Virus record (IMG/VR): IMGVR_UViG_3300009537_000025
Location: 1 to 47,586 of that record
Direction: 5' to 3' (one strand)
Source of the DNA: a virus
DNA length: 47,586 bases
Part shown: positions 3,801-25,036 of the stretch, piece after piece
Layout: the number at the start of each line of letters is the position of its first letter
Position numbering within the stretch: position 1 is the first letter of the stretch
Notes under the pieces: model-generated
Seen by the model: only the letters and a program-made list of their open reading frames with translations
The model's database searches: none
Told to the model about the DNA's origin: nothing
Translations under genes and position numbers: made by a program

Positions 3801-4665
3801 GATATTTGACACTATTAAGAATTCTTTGTCTGAACAATTATCGGCTCAGGATGAACTCCTTGATAAGTTGGGAGAAAGGGTGGATGAAGCTGAAGCAAGT
3901 CTTGACAGAGAGATAGAACTGAACAAACAAGGATTCGCTTCTAATGTTGAACTGAAGCGACAGGAACTTGATGCGATTAAATTTCAGGAGCAAAAGGCCG
4001 CCGCAGAACGTGCGGAATTGGTAAAGAAACAACAAAGGCTTGAAACGATAGAACAGACAGCTTCCTTGATAACGGCATCTGCTAACATATTCAAATCTTT
4101 ATCAGTATTACCTTTCGGAGTTGGTATTCCAATTGCCGCCGGACTTATAGGAACGATGTTCGCATTGTTTATTGCTCAGAAAAGAAAAGCCGCCGATATC
4201 ACCAAATTAGCCGAGGGTGGTTCTGGTGATGATCGAGGAGTAATATCCGGACGTCGTCATAAAGATGGAGGTGAGCGTTTTCTTGATCATGTTGAGGTTG
4301 AAGGAGGTGAATCCTGGGGAGTACTCAGTAGAAATGCAACGAGAAAATTCCAAGGACAATTTCACGATTTTGTCAAATATGCGAATCAGGACAACATGGA
4401 TGCGTTCAATAGAATTTATCTAAAGAAGGACGTCCCTAAAATGATCCTGAAAAAGAAACAAGTTGCTGAGACTATCCAAATGGAAATAAATACTTCTATT
4501 TTAGCAGACGAGATCGGAGGCGACCTGAAAAAATTGCACTCCATTGATGAAACGCTGAAAAAGACATACAAAAAGCCGGACATCCAGACTTACGAGAAAG
4601 GTGGCAAGATTTACAGAATTGAAACATATCCGAATGGATCCAAGAAAACAATAATCACGGAGTAA
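817..4665 (+). CDS. tail tape measure protein
   Basis: Largest ORF (1282 aa). It has long K/E/Q-rich coiled-coil stretches, a Gly run and hydrophobic segments (GPVGIAVAGIVASIFAIGAAVV; LPFGVGIPIAAGLIGTMFALFIA). It follows the chaperone pair. Confidence 0.85.
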   Translation: MAVEIELIGDSTQLLNSLRQINEDQEEIKKSNNDIEKSFKDTFDKSANEVDKTNRALKDQVKTQEKVERNVEMVQKEFTELERKKKKAFDDKEVKDFNKELDKTGDKVDDIGDAEEKVGGLFGGLSEGLDDVKDGFANIGSEIVGSGGGGGIVGGLGQVLSRLGPVGIAVAGIVASIFAIGAAVVSVDQKFDTLRGTINQLTGETGDGLDSIAISLAAIEDTFGIETTESLQAVNVLMKEFGISAQEATGLLEKGLLSNANIQGDLIDSVREYSTQVRAAGGDADDLFTILQSSGTEGVFSDKGIDAVKEFGLRIREQADATTAALETAFGKEFADRISQGISDGSLTSIEALQLVSAELGTLDESSKEAQAVIADVFGGAGEDAGFRFLTTLKDINSEQGFTIDGANELTEAQQKNLDANKRLAEVQNELSKSIGDSSAVGRVWTEIQIGFFEVIVNVVEFVNKLIEGFELLATDPIEGLKVLGAAIFDLLIAPLNLAIDALNFIPSLFGFDDVIPQIGSISDATKEWNNQELIRIDIGQKAIEVIRQYDAEAKRRIGLMRDEFDVLESTTKSEEEKRAAIERLNETYPELLENIDLENASSEELVTIKNNLTRAILEEDIARKKKIATQQLDLEIQKRERQLQAATTDAERKRIEDEILFLQTKGKERLDQVENEVKLQLGLIERGGDEIADQEEENQNKRTSAAKDGADERKKIEDDFQKSVEELLKRGQNAFLNDQTVSEQERLLRQRDFQLEELNQLFDHIKELNETLNDGKELDIGIIEAFNAEQERIVLEFNDKIREIERAENEKRRQEAIANRQALLDIDQEAFQIRSDFLQAQLDEELALIEQSQRREGESERQFEIRKQQDILDAQQFYADRRIELIQQEQQLKLDAIDQELLAIADKEGIEYELKRQNLEDKKKLIEQETQTQLEQFNLQKQGFQQQLDELSGADTRTLGDFFAGIQDQLQEAFNLDSAQLKAIGDAVSQVGKQIFDTIKNSLSEQLSAQDELLDKLGERVDEAEASLDREIELNKQGFASNVELKRQELDAIKFQEQKAAAERAELVKKQQRLETIEQTASLITASANIFKSLSVLPFGVGIPIAAGLIGTMFALFIAQKRKAADITKLAEGGSGDDRGVISGRRHKDGGERFLDHVEVEGGESWGVLSRNATRKFQGQFHDFVKYANQDNMDAFNRIYLKKDVPKMILKKKQVAETIQMEINTSILADEIGGDLKKLHSIDETLKKTYKKPDIQTYEKGGKIYRIETYPNGSKKTIITE

Positions 4666-6500
4666 TGTCCAAGTACAAATTTAAAATACAATACGGTCCG
4701 GACCAGATATTTGTCAATCCATTTGGCGATGTAACTCTCACATGGGAACAACAAGAAGGAACGAATTACTTCCGAAAGAAGCTCAGTTCCTTTACTCTGA
4801 ACATTAAAGAGCAGTATCAATTTATAAAGGATGTTGAGGAGGATGGAGATTTGTGTACAGATTTTCGTGTTATCGTAACGTCAAGATGTGATACAGAGAC
4901 AATAGTTGAATTCAACGGAACGTTCACGATCTCGGATTGTGAGTTTGATGATCATCTTTGCCAGGTCGAAATTGATCCACAACCGGATGATCCTTTTTCG
5001 TGTTTAAAAGCAAATGAGAGCAGAATTGTAAATCTGTTGGCAATAACTGATGAACAAACTGTGGATGCTGATGTACAGGATAATGTTTTCGTTTATAACG
5101 CTCCAGGCACCGAAACTGTTTTGAGAGTTCCGAACGGTGATCCTGCTCCGGATGTATCAGTACTCGCTCCTTATGTTGGTGATCCGGCTGAATTAGATTT
5201 GATAAAAATTCAGAAATTGGATCCGGATATTGGTTTGACTTATGATCATTATGTTGCGTGGGCTTATAGAAGATCAGTTCCTAAAGTTGGCTCAGGATGT
5301 CAACCAACATTATCAAGCGGATACGAGTTGATTGCTTCAAATGCCACTCATTGTTTTTATCAGAAATTACCTTCTTCAGTCGATTTTCTTGATATAGATA
5401 GGGCTAGTTGTGGCTCAGAGTTTCCAACTCCACCACCTCCGGGATGGAAACCTCCTTGGTCAGTTGATATTTGGAGTGGTGTTTGGCTCGATGAGGATCC
5501 GATTGATGGTATTTGTGTTTGGTATAGACCATTTCAGGGAACATACGACAGAGCGAGAAGATTGGATGATTGTTTGGATGCTTTTCTTTCTGATTGTGAT
5601 ATAACGGTGAAATCTGACTTCTTTCAGATCAATCCAGAGAATGTATCCGGAACGAATTATGTAACAGGAATGATATCAAGAACTGCAAACATACACTTCC
5701 TTCAGAAGTCAGATGCAATATATTTTGATTCTACCGAACCTGCAACAAACGGTAAAACGACATGGAAGGATTTCTGGGATGGGCTTTCAAAAATATTCAA
5801 CCTCGGATACACAATCGAGGACAATACGATAGTAATTGAACACATTAGCTTTTTCGACAATATTGTGTCTGTTCTTGATCTTACGCAGGATCCATACGAA
5901 AAATATATTACAGGCCAGAAGAAATACGCATATAAAAAAGAAACGCTCCCGTTCATCGAGACAATTCAACAGTCGGATTGGATAAATGAGGACTTTGAAC
6001 CAAGCCAGATCATATATGAGGGATCGAACGGAAAGAAACTCGGATGCGTTGGAGATAAGGAGGAAAATATTGCGTGGGGGATATTCACAACCGATTTGCA
6101 ATACTATCAGGAGGTTCCGGAAGGAGTTGGTTTAGATGGATGGGTTGTTCTATGTTGTGCAGTTCCGACAATGGCTACTCCTATTCCTTATGTATTTAAT
6201 GAGGTCGGGTTGAAGTCTGGGTTCAATCAGATCAATGGACATATAGCAGTAACAAATGCGGTAAATCATTATTACCTTCACGGGAGATATGCTGAGACAG
6301 GAAAGATAGATGGTGTGCAGACAGATTTTGAAACGAACATCAAAAAGAAAGAAGCGGATCCGATTGATGTTGTAATATGTTGTGAAGATCATGAATTTGA
6401 TCCTAACGAATCGATAAAAACACACCTTGGAGTTGGTAGTGTTACTGAGGCAACAAAAAACCTCAAAACAGGAAGTTTTAACTTGAAAATTGAATACTAA
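4665..6500 (+). CDS. tail tip / distal tail protein (positional)
   Basis: 611-aa ORF whose start overlaps the tape measure stop (ATG at TAATG). No motif recognised. Confidence 0.5.
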   Translation: MSKYKFKIQYGPDQIFVNPFGDVTLTWEQQEGTNYFRKKLSSFTLNIKEQYQFIKDVEEDGDLCTDFRVIVTSRCDTETIVEFNGTFTISDCEFDDHLCQVEIDPQPDDPFSCLKANESRIVNLLAITDEQTVDADVQDNVFVYNAPGTETVLRVPNGDPAPDVSVLAPYVGDPAELDLIKIQKLDPDIGLTYDHYVAWAYRRSVPKVGSGCQPTLSSGYELIASNATHCFYQKLPSSVDFLDIDRASCGSEFPTPPPPGWKPPWSVDIWSGVWLDEDPIDGICVWYRPFQGTYDRARRLDDCLDAFLSDCDITVKSDFFQINPENVSGTNYVTGMISRTANIHFLQKSDAIYFDSTEPATNGKTTWKDFWDGLSKIFNLGYTIEDNTIVIEHISFFDNIVSVLDLTQDPYEKYITGQKKYAYKKETLPFIETIQQSDWINEDFEPSQIIYEGSNGKKLGCVGDKEENIAWGIFTTDLQYYQEVPEGVGLDGWVVLCCAVPTMATPIPYVFNEVGLKSGFNQINGHIAVTNAVNHYYLHGRYAETGKIDGVQTDFETNIKKKEADPIDVVICCEDHEFDPNESIKTHLGVGSVTEATKNLKTGSFNLKIEY

Positions 6501-7993
6501 TGGATTTTGATAATCAATACGTAAGAAGATATCGGCAACACATTCCGTTTTACAAATCGGCGTTCCCTTTAGAAGATAGAAGAGTTTATTGGCACCATAG
6601 ACGTGCATTGTGTGATCAGGAATGCGTGTTCGGAATTCCTGTTGTTCAAGGTCAATTCCTAATGTTTGTTATTGAGGATAATGATTCAACTGGGATCGAT
6701 ATGGTATTTCACGGTGGATCCCAGAATTCAAGGATTGAGTTTTGTTGTATTGATCAAACTGATATTTCTGATTGTGATGATCTAACTTGGGAAAATATTC
6801 CACAAGAAACCCTTTCAACACATAAGAATTGTGTAATAGATGGGGAGTTGTTTCAGTTTCACTATATCAGAATGAAACTTCCGGACGATGCTCCTTGTGG
6901 ATTGAGATATTTCAAGTTTATCGCATACGAAGGAACATCTAATGAGCGAATATTTTACTCTGAGCCTGTTTATGTGTATGAGGATTCTAAAAGATTGTAT
7001 AAACTTAACATTAACGATCCGTGTGGAGTTGGTGGTGTAAATTGGGTTGATGTTTGGCAGGGTTGGCCTCTCAATGATGGATATGAGGTTTATCTTCCTC
7101 CGCTTACTGAGGTTGCGTTTGTTGATGAGGTTACAGAAAGCACAACAGTTGATAATGGGGACGGTGATCAGAAGCAAGTATTCGCCTCTGTTTCGTGGAG
7201 ATACCAATTCGATACTGAATTTATCCCGGAGCATTATGCTGAGATCATAAAAGAGATCACAAACACTCAGAACAATTCGATCACGTTTCCAGATAGACAG
7301 CAAGATCATTATGTAAAGATTGCGGATGCGGAAAGTGCAATATCAAGCGACGAGGACGGATGTTTCGTTCAGGTAAATATGCAATTTGAGATAAAGAGAT
7401 ATGTGGACAGGGTTTGTTGTAATGAAGCTCCTTGTCAATGTCCGCAGGATGATGCTATGACTGTCATATCTTATACCACGGACGAGTTGGATGCGGAATT
7501 GGTGTTTGGAAATACTTATATTGTTCCGGATGGAGCGGCCGGACCAAACAATCCTGCGTGGTCAGCACATCAAAATGAGATTGCCATATGGAACGGATCA
7601 GGTTGGGATTTCTCTACTTCCCCTGTCAGAACCATTGCATATGTTGAGGACGAGGAGAACTATTACATATCAATAGGCGGAGGCGGCACTTGGAGTGATA
7701 ATTTAATGATAATCACAAATGCAACTTACAATGGAGCCGGGACTTGTACCTGGACTGTTGAAGGTGTTATCCCGAACTTAACGTGGGGTAAATTACAATG
7801 GAGTGTAAGTGGTTCAGGAGTTTGGAATGATGCGGACGGTGTTTATGAAGATGCAGATGCTTGGGCTTCTGGAGTTGAGGTTTATTTACCTGCGATAAAC
7901 AATTACGATCTTCGAATTGTTCCTCTTGATATTGGTTGCGACCTTGTAAACAGTGAGGAATACGGCATATCTCAGACTGAGTCCTGTATTTAG
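6500..7993 (+). CDS. tail tip / baseplate-associated protein (positional)
   Basis: 497-aa ORF whose start overlaps the stop of the previous gene. No motif recognised. Confidence 0.45.
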   Translation: MDFDNQYVRRYRQHIPFYKSAFPLEDRRVYWHHRRALCDQECVFGIPVVQGQFLMFVIEDNDSTGIDMVFHGGSQNSRIEFCCIDQTDISDCDDLTWENIPQETLSTHKNCVIDGELFQFHYIRMKLPDDAPCGLRYFKFIAYEGTSNERIFYSEPVYVYEDSKRLYKLNINDPCGVGGVNWVDVWQGWPLNDGYEVYLPPLTEVAFVDEVTESTTVDNGDGDQKQVFASVSWRYQFDTEFIPEHYAEIIKEITNTQNNSITFPDRQQDHYVKIADAESAISSDEDGCFVQVNMQFEIKRYVDRVCCNEAPCQCPQDDAMTVISYTTDELDAELVFGNTYIVPDGAAGPNNPAWSAHQNEIAIWNGSGWDFSTSPVRTIAYVEDEENYYISIGGGGTWSDNLMIITNATYNGAGTCTWTVEGVIPNLTWGKLQWSVSGSGVWNDADGVYEDADAWASGVEVYLPAINNYDLRIVPLDIGCDLVNSEEYGISQTESCI

Positions 7994-22685: not shown

Positions 22686-23123
22686 ATGGCACTTTATAAT
22701 TTCGACAACGAATCAGACCGGGAAAAAGGCATTTCCTATTTCAAACGCCTCCTCGATCTCAGGTGCATAGTTGATCTAACGAAAAAGAAGCCTGTACGAT
22801 CTGACAACCAAAACGCATATATGCACCTAATCATTGGTTGGTTTGCAATAGAAACCGGATACTCCCCTGAGTATGTGAAGCGAGAGTTTTTCAAAATTCA
22901 TTGCAATTCTGAACTGTTCATTTACGAAAAAGTAGGTAAATTGGGGACGGTAAAGGATTTGAGGAGTTCCGCTGATCTGGACACGGCAGAAATGACAACT
23001 GCGATAAAGAGGTTCAGAAATTGGTCTGCCTCTGAAGAGGTTGGGATTTATTTGCCTGAGCCACATGAACAACAAATGCTCGAACAGATAAGAGTTGAAC
23101 TATCAAGAATTGATCACGTATGA
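22686..23123 (+). CDS. NinB/Orf-like recombination protein (tentative)
   Basis: KKKPVRSDNQNAYMHLIIGWFAIETG resembles the RSxxQN..h core recalled for NinB. Confidence 0.35.
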   Translation: MALYNFDNESDREKGISYFKRLLDLRCIVDLTKKKPVRSDNQNAYMHLIIGWFAIETGYSPEYVKREFFKIHCNSELFIYEKVGKLGTVKDLRSSADLDTAEMTTAIKRFRNWSASEEVGIYLPEPHEQQMLEQIRVELSRIDHV

Positions 23124-23863
23124 AAATAGTAGAACGAGACTTCGGAACGCATAAAATAAGATTCATTCACGCTGACAACATGGAATGGATGAAAAACCAC
23201 GTCTGCTCCACATACGATTTAGCTATTGTTGACCCTCCTTATGGAATTGGTGCCGGTAAAAACGGATTCAGTACTGTTGGAAATAATGCGGATGGACTTG
23301 CCACACGAAAAGACTATGGTGCAAAGGATTGGGATAATGCAATACCTGGTCCGGAATATTTTGAACTCCTCATGAAATCATCAAAGAATCAGATCATTTG
23401 GGGAGGCAATTATTTCATCGATCATCTTTACAACACGTCCTGTATGATCGTTTGGGATAAAGACAATGGAGAATGGTCAAACGCTGATTGTGAACTTGCA
23501 TGGACATCATTCAAGACTGCCGTTCGAAAGTTCAAATGGTTGTGGAATGGAATGCTTCAGCAAAACATGAAGAAAAAGCAAGAACGAATTCATCCAACAG
23601 AAAAACCTATTGAATTATACGAATGGCTTTTAATGAAATACGCTAAACCAGGACAAACGATCTTAGATACTCACGGCGGATCCGGATCGATTGCAATAGC
23701 CTGTCACCGGATGAAATTTGATCTTGATATCGTAGAATTGGATGAGGAATATTTTGAGAACATGATCAAGCGATTTGACGAACAACCAGAAAGCCGCCGA
23801 ATTGAAAAGGATGGTAAAGTTTCTACAGAAGTACAAACCAACATATTTGACCAAGGAGCATGA
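23120..23863 (+). CDS. DNA N6-adenine/N4-cytosine methyltransferase (beta class)
   Basis: The IVDPPYGIG catalytic motif lies N-terminal and the LDTHGGSGSIAIAC SAM-binding motif lies C-terminal. Confidence 0.8.
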   Translation: MKIVERDFGTHKIRFIHADNMEWMKNHVCSTYDLAIVDPPYGIGAGKNGFSTVGNNADGLATRKDYGAKDWDNAIPGPEYFELLMKSSKNQIIWGGNYFIDHLYNTSCMIVWDKDNGEWSNADCELAWTSFKTAVRKFKWLWNGMLQQNMKKKQERIHPTEKPIELYEWLLMKYAKPGQTILDTHGGSGSIAIACHRMKFDLDIVELDEEYFENMIKRFDEQPESRRIEKDGKVSTEVQTNIFDQGA

Positions 23864-24741
23864 AACACGCACCATTATTTGCCGGAATTAATGGATTCGG
23901 TTTAGCGGCTGAAGAAATGGAGTGGGATCAACAATTTCATTGTGAGATAGATGAATTTTGCCAAAAAATAATACAATATTATTGGCCACAATCAAAACCA
24001 TATTATGACATTAGACAAACAGATTTCACTATTTGGAGAGGACTCATCGATGTCCTCTCAGGAGGATTCCCTTGCCAACCATACAGTCAGGCAGGAAAAA
24101 GACTTGGAAAAGAGGATGACAGACACCTCTGGCCGGAAATGCTTAGAGCAGTTCGAGAAATTCAACCGCCATGGGTTGTGGGCGAAAACGTTCGCGGCCT
24201 TACTAATTGGAATGGAGGGTTGGTATTCGACGAAGTGCAGGCTGATTTGGAAGCTGAAGGCTACGAAGTCACACCGTTTTTACTTCCAGCTTGCGCCGTC
24301 AACGCTCCCCACAGACGGGATAGAATCTGGTTTGTGGCCTACAATAACAGCAGTTCAAAGAGGAAATCCGGAAAAAATGAGAAAGCTGAAGGAAAAGGGA
24401 CTTCCTCTTCAGAGCAGGGAACTAGGGGACGGATCGAGACAGTTCTCAATTCTGGATTATGCGGAATATCACGGTCTACTTCCGACGCCACAAGCGGCAG
24501 ACGGATTCAAGACTACGAGCAATTCTGGTCAGAAAAACTTAAATGTTTTAGCTCCGGTTGGGAGTGGTTCCCAACTCAATCCCCAATTTGTAGCGGAAAT
24601 GATGGGATTTCCTCCAAACTGGACGGAATTACCTTTCCTAAATGGAGAGCAGAATCAATCAAAGCCTACGGAAACGCAATAGTTCCACAGGTAGCACTTC
24701 AAATATTTAAAGCAATTCAAGAATATGAAAATTTACGTTAG
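23860..24741 (+). CDS. DNA cytosine-5 methyltransferase (short form, frame 0)
   Basis: FAGINGFG (motif I-like), CEID, GGFPCQPYS (24061-24087), ENVRGL (24184-24201), HRRDRIWF (24310-24333), YGNAIVPQV (24667-24693). Confidence 0.85.
   Translation: MKHAPLFAGINGFGLAAEEMEWDQQFHCEIDEFCQKIIQYYWPQSKPYYDIRQTDFTIWRGLIDVLSGGFPCQPYSQAGKRLGKEDDRHLWPEMLRAVREIQPPWVVGENVRGLTNWNGGLVFDEVQADLEAEGYEVTPFLLPACAVNAPHRRDRIWFVAYNNSSSKRKSGKNEKAEGKGTSSSEQGTRGRIETVLNSGLCGISRSTSDATSGRRIQDYEQFWSEKLKCFSSGWEWFPTQSPICSGNDGISSKLDGITFPKWRAESIKAYGNAIVPQVALQIFKAIQEYENLR
24005..24682 (+). CDS. nested +1-frame ORF (225 codons) inside the C5-MTase gene; reads like the long C-terminal/TRD region of other C5-MTases
   Basis: The frame is open from 23972 to 24682. 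It contains SGRKC, GWYSTKCRLIWKLKATK, FQLAPSTLPT, LWPT, LLPTPQAADG and LNPQFVAEMMGFPPNWT. It is more than 3 times longer than any other same-strand alternative-frame ORF in the track. Confidence 0.5.
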   Translation: MTLDKQISLFGEDSSMSSQEDSLANHTVRQEKDLEKRMTDTSGRKCLEQFEKFNRHGLWAKTFAALLIGMEGWYSTKCRLIWKLKATKSHRFYFQLAPSTLPTDGIESGLWPTITAVQRGNPEKMRKLKEKGLPLQSRELGDGSRQFSILDYAEYHGLLPTPQAADGFKTTSNSGQKNLNVLAPVGSGSQLNPQFVAEMMGFPPNWTELPFLNGEQNQSKPTETQ

Positions 24742-25036
24742 TGGAAAAATAACCGGGCTTGATCTCGAAGTAGCACATCAAAATTTCGATGTCGGTGTCC
24801 AGTATTTAAAAGCACAGGGATTTGAACCTATCAATCCGATGGACTTAGTGCCTTATCATCCGGACCTAACCTGGAAGGATTACATGAGAGCCGATATAAA
24901 AGCCCTATGCGATTGCGACGGGATACTTATGATCTCAGGTTGGAGAAAATCGAAAGGAGCGAAACTTGAACGACACATTGCGAAATCGCTTGGACTTAAT
25001 ATCATGTATCTACACACAAACGCAATAAAAGTTTAA
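24725..25036 (+). CDS. DUF4406 / nucleoside 2-deoxyribosyltransferase-like protein
   Basis: MKIYVSGKITG...INPMDL...DYMRADIKALCDCDGILMISGWRKSKGAKLERHIA matches the DUF4406 pattern (recollection). Confidence 0.55.
   Translation: MKIYVSGKITGLDLEVAHQNFDVGVQYLKAQGFEPINPMDLVPYHPDLTWKDYMRADIKALCDCDGILMISGWRKSKGAKLERHIAKSLGLNIMYLHTNAIKV

Follow-up and report, generated by a model that had tools for sequence, protein, structure and literature searches.

Coding content of the locus

The window analysed here is the complete stretch of 47,586 nucleotides (nt) that makes up positions 1 to 47,586 of the IMG/VR virus record IMGVR_UViG_3300009537_000025; its guanine-plus-cytosine content is 39.6%. On the plus strand, which carries all features of the window described below, lies a gene for a cytosine-5 DNA methyltransferase (C5-MTase), which we call alpha (frame 0, 23860..24741, 293 amino acids (aa)). 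Wholly inside it, in the +1 frame, lies a second gene, which we call beta (24005..24682, 225 aa). The +1 frame is free of stop codons from 23972 to 24682, has an ATG at 24005 and takes up 77% of the length of the alpha gene. The two genes overlap on the same strand by about 680 nt, of which about 180 nt are under purifying selection in both frames. An earlier note, made from the sequence of this DNA, had singled out the +1 open reading frame (ORF) as a length outlier; the coordinates it gave for both frames and their motifs were all correct when re-checked, and among same-strand ORFs of the window that lie within a larger ORF the second longest has 71 aa. The Joint Genome Institute (JGI) called alpha on this contig (identical protein P0255), and did not call beta.

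The product of alpha is a C5-MTase, matching PF00145 (E 5.9e-43) and TIGR00675 (E 1.4e-33), with both matches spanning motifs I-VIII only. Its PHROG is phrog_363, distinct from the family of beta. Motifs I (FxGxG), IV (PCQ), VI (ENV) and VIII (QxRxR-type) follow in order on a single alpha chain. Motif IV, GGFPCQ, with the catalytic cysteine (24061..24078, within GGFPCQPYS at 24061-24087), is invariant in 59 relatives, and the same bases read EDSLAN in beta. ENVRGL is encoded at 24184-24201. The conserved core ends at motif VIII, HRRDRIWFVA (24310..24339; HRRDRIWF, 24310-24333), whose bases also encode the first GLWPT unit of beta, a unit of the LLPTP type. Motif X reads YGNAIVPQV (24667-24693) and occupies, together with the C-terminal helix, 24667..24738; the stop codon of beta (24680-24682) lies inside it.

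Alpha residues 4-164 align to residues 15-174 of M.HhaI (phmmer, E 7e-17), with no alignment past that point. An AlphaFold2 model of alpha, built with 51 homologues, is confident over residues 1-167, drops to predicted local distance difference test (pLDDT) values of 29-47 over residues 168-272, and rises above 90 in the helix of residues 276-292, which corresponds to motif X. Searching with this model, Foldseek returned M.HhaI, M.HaeIII and DNMT1 among others, with alignments limited to about 165 columns, equivalent to the large domain. The fold matches include PDB entries 3g7u and 3lx6, structural-genomics prophage C5-MTases from E. coli CP-933R and Shigella flexneri; should their genes hold a nested +1 partner as well, these entries would picture an alpha-type chain by itself.

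In known C5-MTases such as M.HhaI, the chain passes from the large domain (motifs I-VIII) through the small domain, which holds the target-recognition domain (TRD) and motif IX, and back to the large domain with motif X. The DNA of our locus keeps this order of I-VIII, TRD, IX and X, but its small-domain part lies in the other frame. No TRD with motif IX stands between motifs VIII and X on the alpha chain: the C-terminal peptide of alpha alone (63 residues) has no PF00145 match. A 59-aa chimera that joins SQLNP...ELPF of beta to PKWR...GNAIVPQV of alpha matches positions 278-323 of the PF00145 profile (E 3.4e-4). Motif IX, SQLNPQFVAEMMGFPPNWTELPF, is read in the beta frame at 24569..24637, with variation at beta third positions, and the same frame gives LNPQFVAEMMGFPPNWT at 24575-24625. 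The earlier note had taken frame 0 for a complete short C5-MTase, a description that does not hold, since the canonical motif IX is absent from alpha and is found in the +1 frame.

The beta frame opens with an N-terminal domain (N-domain), of which aa 41-100 share a doubly constrained block (24125..24304) with alpha motifs V-VII (codons ~90-148). Downstream lies a module region (aa 113-188, 24341..24568), the putative target-recognition part, which includes HGLLPTPQAADG at 24470-24505 and LLPTPQAADG at 24476-24505. In the alpha frame this region is an unconserved, stop-free linker. At the junction ATT ACC TTT CCT AAA TGG (24628..24645), in which ACCTTT and TGG are invariant, selection passes from the beta frame to the alpha frame.

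Searched through a word index, the beta translation matched 1,448 proteins, the best at E 3.5e-88. With a cut-off of E<=1e-3, an exhaustive profile search gave 14,088 cluster representatives; with one of E<=1e-30, it gave 1,447. The homologues are 40-65% identical to beta over about 95% of the query, measure 200-400 aa, are all named 'hypothetical' and lack Pfam domains; in relatives at large the length of beta ranges from 190 to 660 aa. Among PHROGs the family is phrog_1008, 'DNA methyltransferase' (E 2.3e-21). Homologues share the start of the window protein (M..L.KQISLFTEE) and an invariant N-terminal block (G43, C46, W59, G69, W73, C78, W82, T87, R91 and Y93). One to about six LLPTP-type modules follow, which vary in number and identity and are swapped as units among homologues, and the protein closes with a near-invariant C-terminal end (SQLNPxFVxEMMGFPPxWTELPFLNGETNQSK). 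The GenBank label 'Mte8-like protein' on the homologue of K1ind1 led to no explanation.

A beta-frame ATG is present upstream of motif IV in 60 of 60 relatives. It is preceded by a Shine-Dalgarno-like motif in Paenibacillus phage Rani (GGGAGG) and in coliphage K1H (GGAG), whose hosts use such motifs. In Synechococcus phage S-H1 (L088, 627-1442), the nested +1 protein has another N-domain (..SGRWPRQGLMRNGHVY..), followed by LLPTPRA and LNPSFVEEMMGFPIGWT; since this N-domain differs, the nested partner has more than one N-domain type. The earlier note likened the +1 translation to parts of prophage- and ICE-borne C5-MTases that follow the catalytic core in series, whereas in every relative examined such sequences are nested and out of frame. 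We rejected an in-series fusion of beta with the core in close relatives, as none of eight long beta-family proteins carries a PF00145 domain and the sole cases with motifs IX and X in series are two identical variant loci and a fragment (L213/L214 and L215, described below).

Conservation and selection in both frames

Some 200 independent contigs, viral and bacterial and drawn from different projects, show the same two-frame layout, as do isolate phage genomes. On the first three contigs encoding beta homologues, only beta had been called, and an MTase ORF with motifs I-VIII and X overlies it in the -1 frame. Public protein sets hold either alpha or beta for a given locus because standard gene callers disallow nested same-strand genes. 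In 80 of 80 IMG/VR loci, motifs IV, VI and X lie in one frame and MMGFP lies in the frame at +1 to it, with a constant 71 nt from there to GNA, a spacing that holds in all standard loci. Of 82 IMG/VR loci, 81 have both frames open, as have 35 of the 38 bacterial-genome loci with a complete core, which come mostly from Bacteroidota (Pedobacter, Flavobacterium, Dyadobacter, Alistipes and others). The distance from motif IX to motif X in the bacterial-genome loci is always 3n+2 nt. Exceptions to openness are L003 (3859-4872) and L092, with one stop each in the alpha linker, and L151, with one beta-frame stop inside the core. One viral contig (L002) carries two tandem nested copies (3973-5256 and 5844-6806), of which beta was called for the first and alpha for the second.

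A further 60 unique loci were retrieved by the alpha core only, and are thus free of bias toward an open beta frame. Their beta frames hold 1 stop versus 157 expected, which removes ascertainment bias as the cause of beta openness. Among GenBank phages, a tblastn search with beta returned 86 records. Nested +1 ORFs of 200-330 aa are present in phages of Paenibacillus, Lacticaseibacillus, E. coli (K1H and T4-like), Synechococcus and Bacteroides. Many records annotate alpha alone, among them those of S-H1, of the T4-like coliphage Delraymugoa, of Bacteroides phage BKO1-TP3 and of Lacticaseibacillus phage R9.1; in these four phages 203-329 aa can nevertheless be read without a stop in the +1 frame, against only 43-67 aa in the +2 frame. 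Both genes are annotated in Rani (NC_029084; gp50 and gp51, the latter with the note 'g50 Internal gene') and in K1H (NC_027994; ORF29 with nested ORF28). These two pairs are built like that of the window, are both labelled DNA methyltransferase and have a beta with homology to the window beta (tblastn E 1e-15 and 2e-4).

Inside the alpha core, the beta-frame similarity of the window to Rani, R9.1 and K1H exceeds a null in which synonymous codons were permuted in both genes, with z-scores of 4.4, 3.1 and 2.6. The observed values were reached by 0 of 2000 permutations for Rani, and by fractions of 0.001 for R9.1 and 0.008 for K1H. At such deep divergence, these synonymous-permuted nulls rule out that conservation of beta is a passive by-product of conservation of alpha. 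The nested layout is ancient and occurs in phages of several bacterial phyla, at least four.

We then compared the stops seen in each frame with those expected after permuting synonymous codons within each gene, a procedure that preserves both the protein and its codon usage. Permuted alpha cores are expected to contain about 2.5 beta-frame stops per gene, or 150 in 60 genes, and none was observed. Likewise, permuted beta-coded regions are expected to contain 5.5 alpha-frame stops per gene, or 330 in 60 genes, and one was observed. In the window alone 5.7 alpha-frame stops were expected and none was observed. Selection keeps both frames open.

When 59 alpha cores are aligned by codon, mean synonymous diversity is 0.50 over alpha codons 1-48, before the overlap. 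Within the overlap it is 0.45 over codons 49-93, 0.246 over codons 94-148 and 0.54 over codons 149-160. The drop at codons 94-148 (Mann-Whitney p 1.5e-6) coincides with the invariant block of beta at about residues 41-100. For example, alpha Tyr135 is always encoded by TAC, which fixes beta Thr87.

Codon-position diversity tells which frame is under selection in each segment. Over beta 1-40 and again over beta 101-112 it is alpha only, and over beta 41-100 it is both. Over beta 113-211, which comprises the modules and motif IX, it is beta, with most variation at beta third positions; in the module region, beta position 3 is the most variable codon position (0.64 vs 0.50 and 0.48). From the junction at 24628-24645 onward, through motif X, it is alpha, with ordinary third-position variation. 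Purifying selection acts on every segment in the frame so assigned; beta holds motif IX, and alpha holds motif X. The middle of alpha, about 100 residues, is unconserved read-through and is predicted to be disordered. It is constrained solely to be stop-free, because codon-position diversity there follows the beta frame.

Two of the options raised in the earlier note gain from these results. A genuine overprinted gene is borne out by more than 1,400 strong beta homologues, by a +1 frame that stays open in relatives and by synonymous variation that is suppressed in frame 0 where beta is conserved. The same evidence of homology, openness and synonymous suppression supports a split enzyme with its core in frame 0 and a TRD-like subunit in the +1 frame.

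The window copy of alpha has a peculiar N-terminus. If residues with at least 90% conservation across 59 relatives are counted as near-invariant, alpha deviates at 11 of 91 near-invariant core columns, 10 of which fall within its first 42 residues (23860-23985). Motif I reads FAGINGF in place of FSGIGGF, and the asparagine that the earlier note had pointed out is real (G11N, where 98% of relatives have glycine). Other N-terminal departures include W19E and W30I. Beta deviates at just 1 of 45 near-invariant columns.

A probable two-polypeptide methyltransferase and competing explanations

We consider it likely that the locus encodes a two-polypeptide C5-MTase whose two genes overlap in different frames, in the manner of M.EcoHK31I. 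Alpha would initiate at the ATG at 23860 and form the large domain with motifs I-VIII, which binds S-adenosylmethionine (AdoMet) and is catalytic. It would then read about 100 stop-free codons, with a sequence dictated by the beta frame, as a disordered tether, and end in the motif X helix, which would pack back on the large domain as in known C5-MTases. Beta would initiate independently at the internal ATG at 24005. Its N-domain, overprinted on alpha motifs V-VII, would be a docking domain and its LLPTP module or modules the target-recognition element. As a whole, beta would be the equivalent of the small, target-recognition domain with an extra N-domain, and alpha and beta would assemble into an active enzyme as the chains of M.EcoHK31I do.

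M.EcoHK31I, from E. coli HK31 (Lee, Kam and Shaw 1995), is described in two sources as a two-polypeptide C5-MTase whose alpha gene encloses the whole of the beta gene, read in another frame (PMC2836561; PMC3404938). According to the same sources, its alpha carries motifs I-VIII, the TRD and motif X, and its beta carries motif IX; alpha alone is inactive after silent removal of the beta starts, and the N-terminal 42 residues of beta are needed to associate with alpha (PMC2836561; PMC3404938). Compared by description, the window resembles this system in having a beta ORF on the same strand and in another frame, nested whole in alpha, and in placing motifs I-VIII and X on alpha and motif IX on beta. 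The conserved N-domain of the window beta may parallel the association part of the M.EcoHK31I beta. The two systems differ in that M.EcoHK31I keeps its TRD in alpha and has a small motif IX beta, whereas in the window the conserved modular sequence lies in the beta frame, and beta, at 225 aa, has an extra N-domain over motifs V-VII together with LLPTP modules (1-6 in the family). Moreover, M.EcoHK31I is part of a restriction-modification system, while the window gene sits in a phage-like replication module.

M.AquI, which the earlier note had named as a precedent, is a heterodimeric C5-MTase encoded by adjacent, slightly overlapping ORFs that are split in the variable region, and its second subunit carries motifs IX and X. 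In the window, by contrast, beta is nested and motif X is on alpha. A split enzyme has its precedents, of which M.EcoHK31I, with beta nested whole in alpha in another frame, is the closer; a division of motifs like that of M.AquI is found in the variant L213/L214. In this variant (1287-2277), which two JGI samples share without a difference, alpha comes to an end 9 codons past motif VIII, and a single +1 ORF runs in one frame through the beta N-domain, the LLPTP modules, motif IX, an inserted segment and motif X. With motifs I-VIII on alpha and the TRD, IX and X on beta, this is essentially the M.AquI division. Motif X of L213/L214 is reachable only in the beta frame, so an enzyme with motif X requires that frame to be translated, a point in favour of the two-polypeptide reading. 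The inserted segment resembles an alpha-frame copy of the motif IX region.

The multispecific C5-MTases of Bacillus phages (of the M.SPRI and M.phi3TI type) are single chains with several tandem in-frame TRDs. Likewise, the variable region of the beta family has several tandem modules, whose number and identity differ between relatives; by analogy, the LLPTP modules may be individual TRDs. A second protein in another frame of a phage methylase gene is also known from the ShiLan element, an HNH endonuclease that lies out of frame inside an actinophage methylase gene, in which the methylase frame is stop-free and the region is read as a loop (PMC11855218). Unlike this mobile homing endonuclease, which is unrelated to methylation, beta of the window bears an MTase motif and is an ancient fixed feature. 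An alpha homologue of 465 aa (P0271) also bears an HNH_3 domain (PF13392), which recalls the HNH insertions, in frame or out of it, reported from actinophage methylase genes (PMC11855218).

A number of points weigh against the two-polypeptide reading. Searches of beta against Pfam, NCBIfam, PADLOC and PDB sequences gave nothing significant, and the AlphaFold2 model of beta alone has a mean pLDDT of 52.6, too low for a fold search. The case for beta as the putative small-domain equivalent is made from motif IX and by exclusion, and both the translation of beta and its binding to alpha are things that we infer from sequence. The window alpha might be impaired by its departures in motif I; alternatively, these N-terminal departures may stem from a mosaic N-terminus or from relaxed constraint on AdoMet binding. 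L215 (1786-2154), a contig of 1x coverage, holds the C-terminal piece only, with no MTase core upstream, and there motifs IX and X are fused in frame exactly at LPF|SKW, matching the gain of a single T in the junction's T-run. Where motif IX meets motif X, the invariant CCT TTC contains a U_UUC run and could serve as a -1 slip site, and the fusion in L215 is just the one that such a slip would give. Finally, the rare loci L216 (1188-2238, on four contigs), L217 (950-1908) and L218 (962-1884), all found by a chimeric query, have the LLPTP modules in frame with motif X and an alpha that ends after motif VIII, and their motif IX, though intact, sits in a third frame that has no start codon. If real and functional, these loci do not fit a simple two-chain model; assembly indels may have scrambled them, or they may be copies in decay or another kind of arrangement. 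Indel mutants of this gene still show long ORFs because two of its three frames are kept stop-free. The contig name of L217 suggests a long-read assembly.

Since the DNA order of I-VIII, TRD, IX and X is that of a canonical single-chain enzyme, a single polypeptide might be made by programmed frameshifting, either from frame 0 up to motif VIII, by +1 into the LLPTP modules and motif IX and by -1 to motif X, or by the -1 shift only, with beta fused to motif X. The constant 3n+2 nt offset between motifs IX and X, the invariant ACCTTT with its U_UUC and the in-frame IX-X fusions of L215 and L213 are in its favour, and still we judge it quite improbable. It leaves unexplained a +1 frame that is open, conserved, ATG-initiated and separately selected over 110 codons upstream of motif VIII, the would-be shift site, as well as a frame 0 that stays stop-free through the module region. 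At the 5' junction synonymous sites vary freely and no element is conserved, and RNA structure downstream of either junction is not significant (z -0.93 and -1.28), findings that also tell against the recoding into isoforms with different TRDs that the earlier note had offered as an option. The 3' junction sequence is not conserved in Rani, K1H and S-H1, and where it is invariant this is fully explained by double coding (alpha ITF.KW, beta LPFLNG). The U_UUC run is the sole candidate element for a programmed shift; a single -1 slip at the invariant CC-UUU-C could in principle fuse some beta to motif X. Peptides expected only of a frameshift-fused chain are IWFVATITAVQR and NWTELPFPK (also IWFVA-TITAVQR and NWTELPF-PKWR), and the beta-specific peptides of the window are LLPTPQAADGFK and CLEQFEK.

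Another explanation grants that beta is a real overprinted protein and makes it, for instance, a regulator or an anti-defence factor in place of an MTase subunit; alpha would be the enzyme by itself, with a minimal recognition region supplied by its low-complexity middle. The lack of Pfam, NCBIfam and PDB matches, the low-confidence fold, an alpha that is open end to end with its catalytic motifs kept and the L216-type loci without an expressed motif IX all agree with such a role, which we nevertheless regard as unlikely: motif IX, part of the DNA-recognition domain of C5-MTases, lies in beta at a fixed register with motif X of alpha, the middle of alpha is unconserved and predicted to be disordered, L213 has motif X on the beta chain, and the alpha of M.EcoHK31I is reported to be inactive without beta. 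Suppressed synonymous variation alone does not tell its cause, and the +1 frame could be untranslated and conserved for a nucleic-acid reason such as RNA structure, a binding site or codon bias. We find this very hard to credit, given that the suppressed sites are those that fix beta residues, as TAC at Tyr135 does for Thr87, that substitutions in beta are conservative and protein-like, that modules are shuffled as units, that the frame is stop-free over a variable 190-400 codons and that the RNA shows no significant local folding. An artefact, whether through sequencing indels that compensate each other, a pseudogene or an ORF open by chance, is brought to mind by the indel-scrambled look of L215, L217 and L218. 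Against it, the layout comes back in isolate phage genomes and in some 200 assemblies made independently, and chance openness is excluded by synonymous-codon permutation, which leaves practically no room for such an artefact.

Wider occurrence of the nested pair and flanking genes

Already known are the nested alpha/beta kind of C5-MTase, from M.EcoHK31I, a few annotated phage pairs and the PHROG family of beta. Our literature searches gave only M.EcoHK31I, M.AquI and the unrelated ShiLan HNH case, and found no paper on the arrangement or function of the phage nested pair. Not found described in these searches were a beta that has the whole variable, or recognition, region and an N-domain overprinted on the catalytic core; an alpha middle that acts as a selected stop-free tether; and a design of this kind across at least four phyla and thousands of clusters, with one partner systematically lost in automated annotation.

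Of the long overlapping gene pairs that bacterial viruses carry on one strand, this is one of the clearest. If the two-polypeptide reading is true, M.EcoHK31I would be no one-off curiosity but the first known case of a design widespread in phages. 'Hypothetical proteins' by the thousand would then be methyltransferase subunits, and many annotated 'DNA methyltransferases' would lack their recognition half, which matters for expressing them or predicting their specificity. A read-through that is stop-free and otherwise unconstrained would be a neat answer to the topology of C5-MTases, whose chain has to come back to the large domain once it has passed through the small one.

A broader reading, which we put forward tentatively and with some doubt, takes in a whole clade of orphan C5-MTases from phages and prophages of Bacteroidota, Bacillota, Pseudomonadota and cyanobacteria, with thousands of clusters. 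Its members may be obligate heterodimers in which the whole specificity half, made up of docking domain, 1-6 exchangeable LLPTP cassettes and motif IX, is overprinted in the catalytic gene, and in which the middle of alpha is only a tether. If this were true across phyla, cassette swaps could re-target the enzyme or multiply its targets without touching the catalytic chain, and the pair would be an overlapping-gene design for evolvable anti-restriction.

A megablast search of 12 kb around the gene against phage genomes gave no match. Downstream of alpha lies a DUF4406 / nucleoside 2-deoxyribosyltransferase-like gene (24725-25036, plus strand), which overlaps the 3' end of alpha by 17 nt. The upstream neighbour (23120-23863, plus strand) encodes an N6/N4 DNA methylase (PF01555, E 1e-15), and its stop codon overlaps the alpha ATG (ATGA). 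The window thus holds two tandem DNA methyltransferases, and an N6_N4 MTase also adjoins the C5-MTase in L216.

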